Positions 39,887 through 45,776 of a stretch of 64,000 bases of DNA are shown here, piece after piece. The stretch is from Aquabacterium sp. GTDB lineage: Bacteria > Pseudomonadota > Gammaproteobacteria > Burkholderiales > Burkholderiaceae_C. The translations under genes and the position numbers were made by a program. Position 1 is the first letter of the stretch. Every line of letters starts with the position of its first letter. The stretch lies in the NCBI RefSeq assembly GCF_017994835.1, contig NZ_JAGOKC010000001.1; one strand, 5' to 3'. The notes beneath the pieces were generated by a model, which did not search any database, was not told where the DNA came from, and saw only the letters and a program-made list of their open reading frames with translations.

Positions 39887-39982
39887 GGTGTTGAGCGTCA
39901 GGGAGAAAGCCTCAACACTACCGCAAGGCATCGAACAAGCGAAACCTCGTTTGGCACAAGATTTCGCTGTGTTCAGTTGCCA

Positions 39983-40636
39983 TCAAGCACGACGACGGCT
40001 GACTCCGACTGCGCCAAGAAGGCCCAAACCGAGCAACGCCAAGCTGGTGGGCTCAGGAACGGAATGGTCTCCACCAGTCAGAATGAAACCCGCGCTGGTA
40101 CCTGTGTGAAATTGATTGCTTTGCTGCAGCAGTTTGCCGCCACCACCGGTGTAGCCCCACACGGCCAGGTCATAGTTGTAAAAGCTGGCGTAATAGGTGC
40201 CTGCCCCCAAGGTCAGCCCCGCAACATCATCCGTCGTGGCGATCAACGCGTTGTATTGCAGCGTTTGGGTCGTGAAATCAGCGTCGGCAAGGTTCTGGCT
40301 GAACAGTTGTGTTCCTGGCTGCGCTCCGGCACCCACGCTCCAGATGGAAAAGTTCAAACCTTGACCCCAATACGGGGCGGGCGAATACAGGGCAACGCTG
40401 AACCCCGTGATGGTTTCGGAAGTGGTCAGCGTGAACTGGTCAAAAATGCGGTAACTGCCACTGCAAGATGAGCACCATGGGGATGTCAACTTCGTGGTGT
40501 CGTTGAGATCTGGAACCGACTGAAAAACCACTCCGGCAGAGGCCACCTGGGGCAAGGTCACTGCGGCAAACATGGCTGCGGCAAACACGGTCTTTGAACG
40601 GCTCAGAACGTTGCGATGGTTGTTACTGCTTTTCAT
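39983..40636 (-). CDS. PEP-CTERM sorting-domain protein
   Basis: A signal peptide (...VFAAAMFAAVTLPQVASA) and a C-terminal VPEPTSLALLGLGLLGAVGVSRRRA anchor. I chose ATG 40636. Confidence 0.85.
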   Translation of the reverse strand: MKSSNNHRNVLSRSKTVFAAAMFAAVTLPQVASAGVVFQSVPDLNDTTKLTSPWCSSCSGSYRIFDQFTLTTSETITGFSVALYSPAPYWGQGLNFSIWSVGAGAQPGTQLFSQNLADADFTTQTLQYNALIATTDDVAGLTLGAGTYYASFYNYDLAVWGYTGGGGKLLQQSNQFHTGTSAGFILTGGDHSVPEPTSLALLGLGLLGAVGVSRRRA

Positions 40637-40668
40637 ATGACTTCTCGATGTAAAGGACCGTCCTCTTA

Positions 40669-40684
40669 AGCAAAGACCAGGCCA
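40669..40684 (-). promoter_or_regulatory. Sigma-54 type -24/-12 promoter element
   Basis: The minus strand reads TGGCCTGgtctTTGCT against consensus TGGCACG-N4-TTGCW. It lies about 33 nt upstream of ATG 40636, with a GAGAAG Shine-Dalgarno in between. Confidence 0.45.
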
Positions 40685-40858
40685 CACACCACACGCCATA
40701 TGCGACAACCACTTACGTCATTTTCAATGGTCACCCAGATGCAAACTGTCAACTTTTCCGACATCTGGTGTGCCAACAACAACGTGTGGTTGCGGGCCAT
40801 TCGAGCAGACTTCAGGAGTGGAGCGAGCAACGGACCTCGTTGCCCGACGACGCACAAA

Positions 40859-40894
40859 CAAAAAAGGACTTGGCTGTGACGCTAAGTCCTTTTT
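40859..40894 (-). terminator. Rho-independent terminator after tRNA-Lys(CUU)
   Basis: The minus strand reads AAGGACTT-(12 nt)-AAGTCCTT-tttt. A second hairpin (TCAACGCT-caa-AGCGTTGA, about 40897-40915) immediately follows the tRNA. Confidence 0.7.
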
Positions 40895-40920
40895 GCTCAA
40901 CGCTTTGAGCGTTGAAAATT

Positions 40921-40996
40921 TGGTGGGCCCTGAGTGACTCGAACACTCGACCAACGGATTAAGAGTCCGCTGCTCTACCAACTGAGCTAAGAGCCC
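40921..40996 (-). tRNA. tRNA-Lys, anticodon CTT
   Basis: The 76-nt sequence is GGGCTCTTAGCTCAGTTGGTAGAGCAGCGGACTCTTAATCCGTTGGTCGAGTGTTCGAGTCACTCAGGGCCCACCA. The cloverleaf folds by eye, the anticodon loop is CTCTTAA, and CCA is encoded. Confidence 0.93.
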
Positions 40997-41199: not shown

Positions 41200-42870
41200 T
41201 CAGGCCATCAACAACTGCCCCGGTGCTGGCCGGCCCGTCAACATCTCGATCTCCTCCCCCAGAACGCTTGATTCAGCCGCCAAGGCCGTGATCTCTTCGT
41301 CAAGTGCCAGCGCATGGGTGCGCGCCACTTCTTCAAGGTGCCCTGAACGTGCCTGGCTGAGTTGGTGCAATTCGTAGCGCGCATCGCGCCGCAGTTCATT
41401 GAGGGCGTCGAGCATCAGCACAATCTGCAACTGCAAGGTCTCGAACAGTTTGCGCAGGTTGGCCGTCTCGATGGAGTCGCTGAAATCAAGATGCCCCCAG
41501 CCCTGCTTGAGCAAAAAACCATTGGGGTCCTGTGCAATGTCGCGCAGGCGTTGCACATCGCCACTGTCGCGTGCACGGTTGATCTCACTGGTCAGTTGCT
41601 GAAAGATGGCCAGCTTGGCAGCATCGTGGGCAAAGCGGTCGGGGTGGAACAGCCGCACCAGCTTGCGCCACAAACTCTTGAGTTCGCGGGCCTCGTCTTC
41701 GGGCAAGTCCTTTTGCTCGGCGGCCTCACATGCCACCTGCTCGTACTCGGCATCCGATTGGTGCCAGGCCTCCTCGCACTGACGGGCCACGGCTTCGGCT
41801 GCGTCTTCGCCGTCGTACAGGAGTGCATCCAGATACTGGCGACGGTAACTCACCACCAGGCGCAAGCGGTCGCGTTGTTGGTAGTGCGGTCGCAGCAGTC
41901 CGAACAGGCGCGCCTGGGTGACGTCCACTTCATGACGCTCCTGGGTGTAGCGGGCCTCCAGGTCGGCCAGCCGAACACGCGCCGATGCAATCAGTGCTTT
42001 GAGCGCATCACCCTCGGGCTTGACGAACACCAGCACACCGCTCTGGACGCCCTCGGCAGCGGTGGGCTCACCTTGTGCACCCCGGGTGCTGATCGCTGCC
42101 TCCATCTGGGCCAGCGCTTCATCGACGGCGGGGGCAGGTTCGGTCAGTTGCGCCAGATACCAGCGCCCCATGCTGGCCGAGCGCGGGCTGGAGGAACCCG
42201 CCAACCAGGCCAGCCAGTCACGCAAGCCTGGGTCTTGCAGCGCTTCGCGAAAATGCCGCCCTTTGAACTCGCCAAAGGCCAACCGTGACGGGTACCAGGG
42301 TGCCTGTGCATGCTCACACAGTGCATGCCAGCTGATCAACCCACGACGCTCGGCGAGTGGCTGCAGCACGGTGCCCAACAGGTCCACGGCGGTTTCGACT
42401 TCGCCAAGGACCGAATCAGGCGTGCGCTCGGGCAAGCGGTAGTACTGCCTGAGGGTTTGCAACTTGCCACTGAGCACAGGTACCGGATCGAGCAGGCGTT
42501 GCGCCAGTCGGAGTGCGCAGAAACCTTCGGTGCCGATGGGGGCAATGCCCAAACGCGCCCATTCAGGTTGCAAGGATCGGTGCAGGGTCTGTGGCAGGTC
42601 GAACGCCACCCATGGCAGCGCCTGGGTGTACTGGGCCAGTTCGCGGTACACCTGCTGTGGGGGCTCGCCATCACGCTCGATGAGGGCGCGATCCAGGCCA
42701 TGCACGCGGGAGCGCTCCTGGTTCATGTCGGAGCCGTGGTTGATCAATCGCCGGAAGGATGGGCCGTGGGGCAACCAGCCACGCATGCGCTGCGCAGCCA
42801 CTTCCACCACCACAGGCGAGCTCAGGCCAGCTGTTTCAACGTCGATCAGCACCCAGTCGTGGTCGTTCAT
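41200..42870 (-). CDS. Exonuclease-like (DEDD fold) / coiled-coil / J-domain fusion protein
   Basis: A 556-aa protein from ATG 42870. N-terminal WVLIDVETAGL is the ExoI motif. FGEFKGRHFREALQDPGLRDWLAWL is a DUF3820/ExoX-C-like motif. The J-domain reads LKSLWRKLVRLFHPDRF...AIFQQLTSEINRARDSGD, with HPD at 41638-41646. The ORF track starts at 42939. Confidence 0.8.
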   Translation of the reverse strand: MNDHDWVLIDVETAGLSSPVVVEVAAQRMRGWLPHGPSFRRLINHGSDMNQERSRVHGLDRALIERDGEPPQQVYRELAQYTQALPWVAFDLPQTLHRSLQPEWARLGIAPIGTEGFCALRLAQRLLDPVPVLSGKLQTLRQYYRLPERTPDSVLGEVETAVDLLGTVLQPLAERRGLISWHALCEHAQAPWYPSRLAFGEFKGRHFREALQDPGLRDWLAWLAGSSSPRSASMGRWYLAQLTEPAPAVDEALAQMEAAISTRGAQGEPTAAEGVQSGVLVFVKPEGDALKALIASARVRLADLEARYTQERHEVDVTQARLFGLLRPHYQQRDRLRLVVSYRRQYLDALLYDGEDAAEAVARQCEEAWHQSDAEYEQVACEAAEQKDLPEDEARELKSLWRKLVRLFHPDRFAHDAAKLAIFQQLTSEINRARDSGDVQRLRDIAQDPNGFLLKQGWGHLDFSDSIETANLRKLFETLQLQIVLMLDALNELRRDARYELHQLSQARSGHLEEVARTHALALDEEITALAAESSVLGEEIEMLTGRPAPGQLLMA

Positions 42871-42883
42871 GCACGCACCATTT

Positions 42884-44605
42884 TCAGCGACGCCGACCCG
42901 GCGGGATGCCCAGCAATCCCACGGTGGGGTCGGCTGCAAACACCCCCAACTGGGACAGGTTGCGGATGTCCAGCACGGTCAGGCGGTTGTCGCCACAGTC
43001 GAGCAAGGTGAGTTGTGGCACGGCGGGCAGGTTGAGTGCGATCAGCTGGTTGCCCCGACACCAGAGCTTGGACAGGCGTGGCACCCCCATCAGCGCCAGT
43101 TGGCGCAATTGGTTGTGGGCGCAGCCCAGCAGGGTCAGCGCCGATACGGCCGACAGGTCGAGCATGCACAAGGCATTGTGGTCACAGGCAAGCGCACTGA
43201 GCGCGGGGACGCGTGACAGGTCAAGCTGCGTCAGGCGATTGTGCCGACACCAAAGCTCGGTGAGGTTGGGCAGATCGCCGAGTTGCAGCGAGGCAATCTG
43301 GTTGTTGTCACACACCAGCAGGCTCAGGGACTGCAGGGTGGACACGTCGAGCCGGGTGATGTGGTTGTCGGCACACCACAGCTTGGTCAGCGCTGGCACA
43401 GCTTCGGCTGCCAGCATCATCAGACGGTTGCTGCTGCAGTCGAGCAGATGCAGGTTCGGCACCGCTGCAAGCGCCAGCACGGTGAGCTGGTTTTCACGGC
43501 ACCACAACTCGTGCAACTGGGGCACGGGCGAGAGATCGAGCTGCGTGAGGTCGTTGTGGTTGCAGCTCAGCATGGTCAACTGCGGCACAGCCGCGAGGTC
43601 CAGCTGGCTCAGTTGGTTGTGGTCGCAGGCCAGCGACAACAGTCCTGGCACCGCCGCGAGGTCAATCTGGGTCAAGAGGTTGTGCCGACACCAGAGCTCG
43701 GTCAGGCGGGGGACGCTTGCAAGATCGAGTTCGCGCAGGTGGTTGTGGTTGCAATTGAGCACCCGCAAACCCGGCATCGCTGCCAGAGGCAGGCGCGTGA
43801 GCTGGTTGCCGCGACACCACAGCTCGCTGAGGGTCGATGCCTCAGGGAGTTGCAAGGCGCTGAGGCGGTTGTAGTCGCACACCAGCAGATTCAGTTGTGC
43901 AAGGTCGGACAGATCGAGCTCTGTCAGCTGGTTTTCCTGGCACCACAGGGTGGTCAAGGCGGACAGACCTGTCAGCTTGAGCTCGCTCAACTGGTTGTTG
44001 TCGCACGCCAGGGTGGTCAGGGCGGGCGCTGCGGACAGGTCCAGGTCGATCAGCTCGTTGTAGGCGCAGAACAGGCGGGTCAAGGCGGGCGCGGTGTGCA
44101 GCTGCAAGTCGGTCAAACCCACACGGTTGCACCACAGAAAATCAAGCCGTGGCAAACGGATGGACAGTTTGCGGGGCGTGAGGGCCGTGCTGGGCTTGAA
44201 ACCGAGGCGGCGAATCTGCAGCCCATCGACCCATTCAAAGTGGGCCAGGGGCAAGGCGTCGAAGTCCCACACCAGGCTGGTGATCGCGCCGTTGTCGAGG
44301 ACAAACGCCAGCGCTTCACCGTGCGCGTTGTCGATGCAGGCCTGGGCCAGGCGCTGCAAGACTTCTTCTGGCGACAAGGCCAGGGCTTGTGCCCACATCA
44401 GCACCTGACGGTGATCGGCCTCACGCAACTTGTGCTCGCCAACCTGGTGCGTAGGCTGGTCGTGCAAAGCTTGCTGCGCACGCGCCACCGCCAGCACGCC
44501 TGATGTCATGCGCATCAGGATGCCGCGCGCAGCGCCGTCGGAGGTGGCCAGTTGGCCAGACGGTCGGCTGATCAGAGAGCGAGCTTCTTCGTTGTCAATC
44601 ATCAC
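42884..44605 (-). CDS. Leucine-rich repeat protein (19 x 21 aa), no signal peptide
   Basis: A 573-aa protein: residues 1-153 are unrecognised, then 19 in-register repeats of LxxLxCxxNxLxxLDLxxxPx. The start is GTG 44605 or ATG 44602. Confidence 0.88.
   Translation of the reverse strand: MMIDNEEARSLISRPSGQLATSDGAARGILMRMTSGVLAVARAQQALHDQPTHQVGEHKLREADHRQVLMWAQALALSPEEVLQRLAQACIDNAHGEALAFVLDNGAITSLVWDFDALPLAHFEWVDGLQIRRLGFKPSTALTPRKLSIRLPRLDFLWCNRVGLTDLQLHTAPALTRLFCAYNELIDLDLSAAPALTTLACDNNQLSELKLTGLSALTTLWCQENQLTELDLSDLAQLNLLVCDYNRLSALQLPEASTLSELWCRGNQLTRLPLAAMPGLRVLNCNHNHLRELDLASVPRLTELWCRHNLLTQIDLAAVPGLLSLACDHNQLSQLDLAAVPQLTMLSCNHNDLTQLDLSPVPQLHELWCRENQLTVLALAAVPNLHLLDCSSNRLMMLAAEAVPALTKLWCADNHITRLDVSTLQSLSLLVCDNNQIASLQLGDLPNLTELWCRHNRLTQLDLSRVPALSALACDHNALCMLDLSAVSALTLLGCAHNQLRQLALMGVPRLSKLWCRGNQLIALNLPAVPQLTLLDCGDNRLTVLDIRNLSQLGVFAADPTVGLLGIPPGRRR
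42950..44146 (-). repeat. Tandem 63-bp coding periodicity (LRR array)
   Basis: There are 19 consecutive 21-codon units. The periodicity also produces long shadow ORFs on the plus strand. Confidence 0.9.
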
Positions 44606-44774: not shown

Positions 44775-44996
44775 ATGTCTGCCAGCCTTACACCTTCCAG
44801 TCCGTGCGCGAACCTGTGCCCCCTGTGCGGTCAAACCAACGCCTGCGCTCAGGCACAGGGCGGCTCGGCCGACTCACCTTGCTGGTGCAGCACTGTGCGC
44901 TTCAGCCCCACCTTGCTGGCACGCGTGCCCGAAGCCCAACGGGGGGTGAGCTGCATTTGCGAGGCCTGTGCACGCGCTGCAGCTCAGACTGAGTGA
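44775..44996 (+). CDS. Cysteine-rich CWC family protein
   Basis: A 73-aa protein: CANLCPLCGQTNAC...SPCWCSTVRF...VSCICEAC. Confidence 0.7.
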   Translation: MSASLTPSSPCANLCPLCGQTNACAQAQGGSADSPCWCSTVRFSPTLLARVPEAQRGVSCICEACARAAAQTE

Positions 44997-45008: not shown

Positions 45009-45467
45009 TCAGTGCGCAGCGTGATCGGAATGGTCGGCCTGACGGGCAAACGGTGTGAAACGTGCCTGCTCTGTGGCCTTGCCAGGCAGGGTCACCGACA
45101 CGATCGCTTTCATGTCAGGGGTGGAGGCATAGACGCCCGCGCCTTTGAGGCGGTTGTCTCCATCGGGTTTCAGCTGAACGGTGGTTCTGGATTTGCCTGC
45201 CAGCAGGGTGACCACCCCTTTGGCCTCCGCCGTGGACAGCTTTGCGCCAGCATGGTCGGTGACATGAACGACCACGGGGTTGGAGCGAGCCTGTTGACCG
45301 GGACCGGTGACGACCAGCTCAAGGTGATAACTGGCGGTCATGCGCAGTTGCCCACCATGCGGCGCTGTCTGGGTGTCAAGGTAGGCATCGGAGTGTGCCA
45401 GGGCGACGCCTGAGGCGAGCAGGCCCGCGAACGTGGCAGTGGTGATCAGGGCCTTGTGAAAGATCAT
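45009..45467 (-). CDS. Secreted hypothetical protein with His-rich mature termini
   Basis: A signal peptide (MIFHKALITTATFAGLLASGVALA), mature N-terminus HSDAYLDTQTAPHGG and C-terminus ADHSDHAAH, with a beta-rich middle. A GGAG Shine-Dalgarno precedes the ATG. Confidence 0.65.
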   Translation of the reverse strand: MIFHKALITTATFAGLLASGVALAHSDAYLDTQTAPHGGQLRMTASYHLELVVTGPGQQARSNPVVVHVTDHAGAKLSTAEAKGVVTLLAGKSRTTVQLKPDGDNRLKGAGVYASTPDMKAIVSVTLPGKATEQARFTPFARQADHSDHAAH

Positions 45468-45646: not shown

Positions 45647-45682
45647 AAAAAAAAGGCTCACAGACAATCGCCTGTAAGCCTT
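45647..45682 (-). terminator. Rho-independent terminator after tRNA-Lys(UUU)
   Basis: The minus strand reads AAGGCTTACAG-(8 nt)-CTGTGAGCCTT-ttttttt. The stem has one mismatch. Confidence 0.75.
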
Positions 45683-45700
45683 TGATTTTGTTAGATTCTT

Positions 45701-45776
45701 TGGTGGGTCGGGAGGGACTCGAACCCTCGACCAACGGATTAAAAGTCCGCTGCTCTACCGACTGAGCTACCGACCC
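45701..45776 (-). tRNA. tRNA-Lys, anticodon TTT
   Basis: The 76-nt sequence is GGGTCGGTAGCTCAGTCGGTAGAGCAGCGGACTTTTAATCCGTTGGTCGAGGGTTCGAGTCCCTCCCGACCCACCA. The anticodon loop is CTTTTAA. Confidence 0.94.

Follow-up and report, generated by a model that had tools for sequence, protein, structure and literature searches.

Why should a leucine-rich repeat (LRR) protein be encoded directly ahead of a protein that joins an exonuclease-like domain to a J-domain? The question is raised by a stretch of 64,000 nucleotides from Aquabacterium sp. (Burkholderiales; RefSeq assembly GCF_017994835.1, contig NZ_JAGOKC010000001.1), hereafter called the window. Two minus-strand genes lie side by side in it: gene 1, for the LRR protein, and gene 2, for the fusion protein that we call Exo-J. 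A preliminary description of this DNA had read them as a co-transcribed, uncharacterized two-gene module with a stress or defense flavor, made of a repeat-based binder and an exonuclease-like J-domain protein. This core reading stands, with co-transcription as a prediction. Exo-J is the constant subunit of a module found in several phyla, and its partner carries a short N-terminal leader behind which LRRs are one domain type among several. We tentatively propose, at a little under even confidence, that the module is a modular Hsp70-coupled sensor/output system, whose role would most likely be in conflict/defense or in stress surveillance.

The two open reading frames (ORFs) have the coordinates, lengths and 13-nt spacer that had been claimed for them, and both show a coding-type G+C content at third codon positions (0.81 for gene 1 and 0.74 for gene 2). 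Gene 1 starts at GTG 44605 or ATG 44602 and has about 400 nt of non-coding DNA on its 5' side. An alternative start of gene 2 at 42939, previously taken for an ATG, is a TTG. All gene-2 homologs start at the position of ATG 42870, and hence the genes are correctly read as separated by 13 nt. Terminator prediction gave no site between them.

Is the pairing a peculiarity of this genome? Full-length homologs of gene 2 (~550 aa) number more than 1200, and 371 clusters of a library clustered at 50% identity match it at E ≤ 1e-30. A scan of 185,579 species genomes, with one genome per species, gave 151 relatives with a patchy distribution across phyla, the best 80 of which were fetched as loci. Verrucomicrobiota account for about 46 of these loci and Beta-, Gamma- and Alphaproteobacteria for about 25; Planctomycetes, Acidobacteria, Binatia, Lentisphaerae and others make up the remainder. 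Cultured hosts include Polaromonas glacialis, Caenimonas soli, Thiocapsa roseopersicina, Thiocystis minor, Allochromatium warmingii, Halomonas tibetensis and Aquabacterium sp. G14.

By tblastn, 34 of the 61 loci with 2 kb or more of upstream flank have a gene for the N-terminal domain plus LRRs immediately upstream of Exo-J. In the other loci, the neighboring gene has no LRRs, yet its product starts with the same leader of about 40 residues. A hidden Markov model (HMM) of this leader found an adjacent same-strand leader gene in 67 of the 80 loci, typically at a distance of -10 to +25 nt from the Exo-J gene. The 13 misses comprise 11 loci with less than 500 nt of upstream flank, plus L066, where a divergent leader precedes a WG-repeat protein, and L068, where only LRR matches were found upstream. 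These two leader caveats apart, every Exo-J locus with at least 1 kb of flank has a same-strand adjacent partner gene. Five of five additional loci also carry a leader gene beside Exo-J. In the reverse direction, four leader proteins on long contigs were looked up, and the pairing was confirmed at the three with DNA to follow: two continue into Exo-J (L088 and L090) and one into a short form of it (L089). Recurrence in all informative loci (more than 60) indicates that the pairing is more than chance. Thus, co-occurrence and adjacency, on which the preliminary description had staked its reading, were strongly borne out across several phyla. Some genomes or close relatives hold two or three separate copies, each with its own partner, as in one gammaproteobacterial metagenome-assembled genome (MAG; L023, L045 and L079); multiple copies also occur in Lamprobacter (L042, L060) and in Prosthecobacter debontii MAGs (L063, L077). 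In the literature searched, neither the pair nor the leader was found to be described; coverage did not extend to the 2020 Journal of Molecular Biology census of bacterial J-domain proteins, where a bare listing of the architecture is possible. The organization of the module is apparently undescribed.

The leader, which was recognized by aligning leaders from the fetched loci, is the only element common to every partner protein. Its family consensus is FALVPRPxxALEKxxPGAKRILSGMVxDTLALA (~40 residues). Within Aquabacterium, no part of gene 1 is better conserved: the leader has the lowest nonsynonymous substitution rate (dN 0.031) and a ratio of nonsynonymous to synonymous rates (dN/dS) of 0.084. 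Judged from the aligned sequences, the partner is defined by this leader, the LRR array being one option among seven or more interchangeable domains at the C-terminal side. The domains found behind the leader are LRR, Sel1, TPR, receiver, WG repeats, FGE-sulfatase, PTS EIIA/HPr and the β-domain of the Hsp70 substrate-binding domain (SBD). LRRs occur in about half of the partners; among 32 non-LRR partners, Sel1 (17/32), receiver (8/32) and TPR (7/32) are found. Tandem arrays, in which two or three leader genes stand ahead of one Exo-J gene, are frequent. In L071, a leader-Sel1 protein is encoded downstream of Exo-J. This downstream gene had been considered as an Hsp70 gene and was rejected as such, the Hsp70 match belonging to the partner in L012.

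Fusions and truncations indicate how the parts may fit together. In the fusion P0275, the exonuclease domain, an internal leader, the linker domain of LRR-type partners (see below) and the LRRs form a single chain. P0335 joins the exonuclease to LRRs and WD40, and P0309 joins it to Sel1 and a client-binding DnaJ_C domain. Conversely, a 278-aa protein (L089:7563-8399), corresponding to gene-2 residues 277-546 without the exonuclease, is encoded directly after a leader-Sel1 gene. About 16 representatives of this stand-alone coiled coil/J-domain/tail form were found, of ~270-290 aa (P0284, P0299 and P0306, for example). Its place beside the leader-Sel1 gene in L089 makes the coiled-coil/J/tail half the likely docking partner of the leader. 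As a separate observation, P0245 is a fusion of DUF7662 to a full Exo-J.

The partners with an Hsp70 domain bear on the origin of the leader. In L012:7475-8011, P0194, P0214 and P0220, the leader is followed by an SBD β-domain with 38% identity to DnaK 381-520. The alignment to DnaK extends into the leader itself, "VLSDMVRETLALD" facing DnaK 381-393 "VLTGDVKDVLLLD", at the end of the nucleotide-binding domain (NBD) and the interdomain linker. The leader could then derive from this part of an Hsp70, interchangeable sensors would plug into the J-domain/exonuclease hub, and DnaK would treat the sensor as a surrogate SBD. We regard this as improbable: hhalign gave the leader alignment against DnaK a probability of 0.3%, and the leader HMM did not pick out DnaK 365-393, its score being no better than that of shuffled sequences. 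If it were true, the module would represent a new class of modular, Hsp70-coupled surveillance system, in which a ligand-bound sensor would retarget the main cellular chaperone or trigger an effector.

In gene 1 itself, the N-terminal domain of 150 aa that had been called unrecognizable resolves into the leader and a linker domain of about 100 aa, which is confined to LRR-type partners and had no match in a Pfam search. A search with the 155-aa N-domain alone returned one fragment only, word-indexed searching being insensitive for such a domain. The earlier claims of 19 in-register LRRs and of a missing signal peptide both hold, on the evidence of the repeat alignment, of Pfam (LRR_4, E 3.8e-40) and of the N-terminus, in which no signal-peptide-like hydrophobic stretch was seen. 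The repeats are strictly in register, with invariant Leu 4/7, Cys 9 and Asn 12, and the protein ends only ~24 aa beyond the last one. Concave positions 6, 8, 10 and 11 differ among repeats and are near-invariant among orthologs (mean pairwise difference 0-0.08), against 0.25-0.39 at convex positions. This invariance of the concave face implies that the LRR ligand is conserved, and nothing at this depth points to an arms race. No tandem repeats were found at the DNA level in the LRR region, and hence the array is old and not recently expanded. A Trp at repeat position 8 is found only in repeats 1, 4, 6, 8, 11, 13, 15 and 18. This 3-2-2 spacing suggests that the 19-repeat array may have grown by duplication of a 7-repeat block.

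The N-terminal part of Exo-J has the DEDD fold and the ExoX-type C-terminal motif that had been proposed for it, according to profile, structure and alignment searches. The family profile matches DEDDh entries of the PDB with an E-value of 4e-9. An AlphaFold2 model built from 107 sequences (mean predicted local distance difference test score (pLDDT) 85.7; predicted TM score 0.74) gave Foldseek TM-scores of 0.73-0.77 to DnaQ domains, Pol III epsilon and ExoX (8h2f, 0.77; 2gui, 0.76; 4fzx, 0.73). By hhalign, the family aligns with residues 4-198 of E. coli ExoX (96% probability, E 4.6e-9). The FGxFKGR...WLxWL segment, modeled with a pLDDT of ~90-97, is homologous to the C-terminal part of ExoX (FGKYRGK...YLRWL).

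The term "nuclease-like" is apt for the fold and probably fails for catalysis in the window. The complete D-E-D-H-D set together with the J-domain HPD tripeptide is present in 158 of the 198 family members. In the window protein, D10 and E12 of motif I are kept, the Asp of motif II is replaced by Thr95, and the His and Asp of motif III are replaced by Asp152 and Glu157. Comparable replacements mark the Aquabacterium clade (~28 of the 198 members, the window included), which reads D-E-[T/A/V]-[D/A/S]-E, with three of five catalytic residues replaced. Because of these replacements, exonuclease activity of the window protein is predicted to be absent or very weak, and the domain is a probable pseudo-enzyme. 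A segment outside the exonuclease motifs (aa 116-149, ~42424-42525; GFCALRLAQRLLDPVP....KLQTLRQYYRLPER) is near-invariant throughout the family, including in the degenerate clade. Judging by this conservation, it is a candidate for a family-specific binding surface.

Downstream of the exonuclease-like half, the predicted long coiled coil appears in the model as two long helices (residues 287-352 and 355-384, within aa 287-384), after a segment with a pLDDT below 50 (251-282). The J-domain claim is supported in part. The HPD tripeptide is intact (H409-P410-D411, 41638-41646), kept in 197 of the 198 family members and flanked by predicted helices 391-407 and 417-435; the similarity to J-domains by HMM is borderline. 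Pfam DnaJ scores gene 2 at E 0.039 and 14.5 bits, below its cut-off of 27.8, and is reached by some gene-2 homologs. The gene-2 family profile matches DnaJ of the PDB at E 0.004, and hhalign aligns it to E. coli DnaJ at 42% probability (E 2.6e-4) over just 28 columns. NCBIfam HscB matches aa 395-533 weakly (E 0.014; 15.6 bits against a cut-off of 189). Membership of the HscB type was rejected on this score and because neither hscA nor iscU was found in the window neighborhood or in related loci. The features of the pair and the boundaries of its site are listed in Table 1.

Table 1. Features of the two-gene module and of its site in the Aquabacterium window.
Feature	Coordinates	Strand	Details
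tRNA-Lys(CTT)	40921..40996	-	downstream site boundary
Gene 2, Exo-J protein	41200..42870	-	556 aa; constant subunit of the module
C-terminal helical tail	41200..41520	-	aa 451-556 and stop codon
J-domain-like region	41521..41715	-	aa 386-450; helix II, HPD, helices III and IV
Disordered linker, then long helical hairpin/coiled coil	41716..42135	-	linker aa 246-285; hairpin/coiled coil aa 286-385
ExoX-type C-terminal motif domain	42136..42330	-	aa 181-245; FGEFKGRHF...DWLAWL
DEDDh-fold exonuclease-like domain	42331..42870	-	aa 1-180
Intergenic spacer	42871..42883	-	13 nt, gene-1 TGA to gene-2 ATG
Gene 1, leader-tagged LRR partner	42884..44605	-	573 aa
19 LRRs of 21 aa	42959..44155	-	aa 151-549; Cys at repeat position 9 in 19/19
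Linker domain	44156..44470	-	aa ~46-150; RFRIGxYxxxEPDYRQILxWAxAL...DG.I..L.WDF..LPL..FEW
N-terminal leader	44480..44581	-	aa ~9-42; SLISRPSGQLATSDGAARGILMRMTSGVLAVA
Strong predicted terminator	45652-45683		after tRNA-Lys(TTT)
tRNA-Lys(TTT)	45701..45776	-	upstream site boundary

How has the module evolved within the genus? In six Aquabacterium genomes, the pair occupies one shared chromosomal site, with the order tol-pal, ThiF, tRNA-Lys(TTT), variable stretch, LRR gene, Exo-J gene, tRNA-Lys(CTT), nitroreductase. Nucleotide identity is 75-80% across the module and 82-90% across the flanks. The stretch between tRNA-Lys(TTT) and gene 1 varies, being longer by ~5 kb in L001 and by ~1.5 kb in L003. 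Hence, the tRNA-Lys-bracketed site behaves as an insertion hotspot although the module is syntenic. The "accessory pocket" of the preliminary description can accordingly be refined to a variable, tRNA-Lys-bracketed site, at which the module itself is vertically inherited within the genus. Nei-Gojobori dN/dS values among the Aquabacterium sequences are 0.114 for gene 1 and 0.080 for gene 2, with neighboring genes at 0.05-0.20. By region, the J-domain has the lowest value of the module (0.011), followed by the coiled coil (0.041), the ExoX C-terminal motif (0.046) and the degenerate exonuclease (0.109). Purifying selection is thus strong, above all on the J-domain, and the last value indicates that the dead domain is maintained and not decaying. 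Neither dN/dS nor the variation of LRR positions gave any sign of diversifying selection within Aquabacterium.

Several features of the site stand apart from the module. Between tRNA-Lys(TTT) and gene 1 lies a 152-aa ORF (45009-45467, minus strand) that matches nothing in Pfam and whose N-terminus, MIFHKALITTATFAGLLASGVALAHS, resembles a signal peptide. L001 shows ~71% identity to the non-coding DNA that immediately follows this ORF (44814-44974), but did not align with the ORF itself. On the other side, a low-GC stretch of ~1 kb (39928-40911; 0.546 compared with ~0.64) is peculiar to the window, L001-L005 being without it. Its 241-aa ORF (39983-40708) bears a PEP-CTERM sorting motif, and the stretch looks like a recent insertion beside tRNA-Lys(CTT).

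Outside Aquabacterium, defense and mobile genes are frequent around the module. The locus L081 lies in an integrase island, L082 has an MmeI restriction-modification gene and a transposase, and L084 has GmrSD and a PglX-like methylase. The 133 nearest neighbors in 34 loci include Cas3f/Cas1f, BrxL with PglZ, DrmB, type I/II methyltransferases and three AriA-like ATPases. In a subset of loci only, SIR2- or TIR-like genes are present; these domains are NAD-degrading effectors in characterized defense systems. A SIR2-like gene stands directly upstream of the leader genes in four loci (L031:6080-7168, L046:5675-6895, L088:4802-5917 and L090:3446-4582), with PADLOC SIR2/Aga_SIR2 matches at E 1e-8 to 1e-4. 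A TIR/ThsB-like gene (L007:1065-1691; E 1.6e-11) is found just upstream of the module, with one small ORF between. A similar SIR2_2 gene was also seen within the leader-gene array of another contig. The module was found on 2 of 2.9 million viral contigs, on which count a generally phage-borne module was rejected. One viral-collection contig with the module (L086; IMGVR_UViG_3300042691_049199) has a number of large ORFs further upstream. Their size, together with one N-terminal sequence, makes them candidates for phage terminase, portal or capsid genes; if this is correct, the module would be an occasional phage cargo.

Does the pair correspond to a known system? Profile searches placed neither protein in a characterized family with an unrelated role. 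In PADLOC-DB v2, gene 1 had no hit, and gene 2 matched only a Cas-associated DEDDh profile and part of PDC-S48, so that no catalogued system was matched. The Cas-associated profile matches the window protein at E 7e-11, the window being without linked CRISPR genes. PDC-S48, itself a candidate system, matches intact family members over the ~220 ExoX-like residues at their N-terminus (E 4e-15); its profiles of 411-512 positions have a different C-terminal half. With ExoX/DnaQ-type DEDDh proteins, Exo-J shares the fold and, in its family consensus, the full D-E-D-H-D set, with full-length homology over the first ~225 aa. It differs from ExoX by the Thr/Asp/Glu replacements in the window protein, by 330 extra residues (coiled coil, J-domain and tail) and by the obligate leader-tagged partner gene. 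Class C J-domain proteins (HscB with IscU/HscA; DjlB and DjlC with HscC) are alike in the HPD, in DnaJ-like helices II and III and in a helical region after the J-domain, and the adjacent specific partner of gene 2 could likewise be a client. In contrast to them, gene 2 carries its J-domain toward the C-terminal end, preceded by the exonuclease and the coiled coil, scores below the curated HMM cut-offs and has no linked dedicated Hsp70. Its partner is not a single client but a family of leader-sharing proteins with swappable domains.

For gene 1, the closest repeat type is that of InlJ, a Listeria internalin with the same 21-aa cysteine-ladder LRRs, in which a Cys takes the place of a core leucine; the NCBIfam InlJ model matches a portion of the array at E 5.8e-61. 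Assignment to the InlJ class of internalins was rejected, with 207 against 1700 bits and neither a signal peptide nor a wall anchor in gene 1. An IpaH/SlrP-type NEL effector was rejected as well: the SlrP match reaches 71.6 against 1113 bits and is confined to the LRRs, and the protein ends shortly after them. At its N-terminus, gene 1 has the leader and the linker domain instead.

Among defense systems, TONDO/ISG20-like DEDDh exonucleases act against RNA phages; they are combined with auxiliary domains that vary or with an auxiliary gene next to them, and their nuclease activity is sometimes dispensable (bioRxiv 2026, PMC13344964). The likeness to our module, compared by concept only, lies in a DEDDh exonuclease with variable auxiliary parts in defense or mobile contexts; the TONDO paper mentions no J-domain, leader-tagged partner or LRR. 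Parts of the Hsp70 system also occur in conflict systems. bNACHT25 needs host DnaJ (PMC12169576), and GAP1-N2 GTPase conflict systems contain Hsp70/GrpE/DnaJ-fused components (PMC7159879). Of these, bNACHT25 was studied experimentally and the others are proposed; repeat-type sensors recur among them. Unlike them, the present module has no NACHT/STAND or GTPase core, and its J-domain is an integral part of the constant subunit, where it is joined to an exonuclease.

How might such a module work? In the reading that we tentatively prefer, gene 2 would provide the constant output/scaffold subunit, with its ExoX-like DEDDh domain, coiled coil, J-domain and helical tail. Gene 1 would provide an interchangeable input subunit, made of a coupling leader and a ligand- or signal-binding domain. 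In the window, the sensor would be the 19-repeat LRR domain, its concave face binding a conserved protein ligand. The leader would dock the sensor onto the coiled-coil/J-domain/tail part of the gene-2 protein, and a ligand or a phospho-signal at the sensor domain would then alter the complex. The HPD of the J-domain would engage the host Hsp70 (DnaK), which would remodel or release the complex and thereby switch on the output. In most members, this output would include 3'-5' exonuclease activity, to which some operons would add a SIR2- or TIR-like effector. With the degenerate active site of the Aquabacterium clade, the output there would be purely non-catalytic; it could consist of DnaK recruitment to the LRR-bound target, of DnaK sequestration and/or of nucleic-acid-end binding without cleavage.

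A number of points weigh against this reading. With three of five catalytic residues lost, a nuclease effector is not expected to be the output in the window genome. J-domain profile scores are borderline, and a canonical helix I is not evident. The neighbors in the window are housekeeping genes (tol-pal, ThiF, HU, nitroreductase and an ABC transporter), as are many neighbors elsewhere. No conserved third gene was found across loci, and the frequency of defense neighbors is a raw tally without a matched control. Viral contigs rarely carry the module. Within the genus, the module is inherited vertically at one site in six genomes, its dN/dS is ordinary (0.08-0.11), and the LRR ligand face is conserved and not diversifying. 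Vertical inheritance, ordinary dN/dS, a conserved LRR face and housekeeping neighbors are accounted for by a stable cellular function no less well than by immunity, and the receiver and PTS partners suggest physiological signaling. Finally, the proposal was drawn from sequences and a predicted structure.

In the main alternative, a physiological one, the two proteins would form a client/co-chaperone pair of the HscB-IscU type and Exo-J, as a specialized class C J-domain protein, would recognize leader-tagged clients and pass their leader, a hydrophobic Pro-containing peptide, on to DnaK. Solenoid and signaling proteins would thereby be folded, assembled or regulated, and the exonuclease-like domain would be only a nucleic-acid tether or scaffold. 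Such a division of labor agrees with the arrangement of a J-domain and C-terminal helices, with the weak HscB match, with a dispensable active site in Aquabacterium, and with exonuclease-less coiled coil/J/tail proteins that still pair with leader proteins. Purifying selection, vertical inheritance and a conserved LRR ligand face within the genus fit as well, as do partners with receiver, PTS EIIA/HPr or Hsp70 substrate-binding domains. We nevertheless consider it unlikely, if well worth keeping in view, since it leaves unexplained the complete DEDDh set in ~80% of members (158/198), the SIR2-/TIR-like operon genes, the frequent defense or mobile neighborhoods and the rare, patchy distribution; nor is an hscA- or iscU-like gene linked.

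The retention of the pair under selection in a clade that lost its catalytic residues, and the existence of variants without the exonuclease, make it doubtful that the module serves nucleic-acid repair or processing. In that account, Exo-J would be an ExoX-like 3'-5' exonuclease, a leader-tagged adaptor would set its substrate or localization, and the J-domain with DnaK would disassemble nucleoprotein complexes. A homology to E. coli ExoX that runs through the whole of the first ~225 aa, C-terminal motif included, the confirmed DEDDh fold and the intact catalytic set of most members are what one would then expect. UvrB, UvrA-like, RuvB, DNA ligase and ExoVII genes do occur as neighbors, but sporadically and without conservation, and the diversity of sensor-type partners is atypical of repair adaptors; overall, a repair role seems rather improbable to us. 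A secreted "eukaryote-like" effector with a dedicated chaperone is less plausible still, and we give it very little credence. Here, the leader would be a secretion or targeting signal, the LRR, Sel1 or TPR proteins would act as effectors on a eukaryotic host, and Exo-J would be their cytoplasmic chaperone. LRR, Sel1 and TPR are classic effector domains, the LRRs partially match InlJ and SlrP in NCBIfam, and a common N-terminal tag on variable cargo resembles secretion-substrate families. However, receiver, PTS EIIA/HPr and Hsp70-SBD partners are cytoplasmic signaling or chaperone parts, and the internal position of the leader in P0275 indicates that a free N-terminus is unnecessary. Moreover, no secretion-system genes are linked in the window or in the compared loci, Pfam and NCBIfam scans gave no NEL or other effector enzyme domain, and the hosts, judged by the names of the source genomes, are apparently mostly environmental and free-living.

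J-domain proteins decide where Hsp70 acts. A J-domain hard-wired to an exonuclease, with a common tag on swappable sensors, would therefore be a new design principle for chaperone targeting. The clade of the window is a natural experiment, in which a conserved function would be independent of nuclease catalysis. The family also offers testable handles: the 40-aa leader, predicted to be sufficient for docking, the HPD motif, natural variants with a dead, missing or fused exonuclease, and cultured hosts. If the sensor/output reading is right, this design principle would probably extend to bacterial immunity or stress surveillance.

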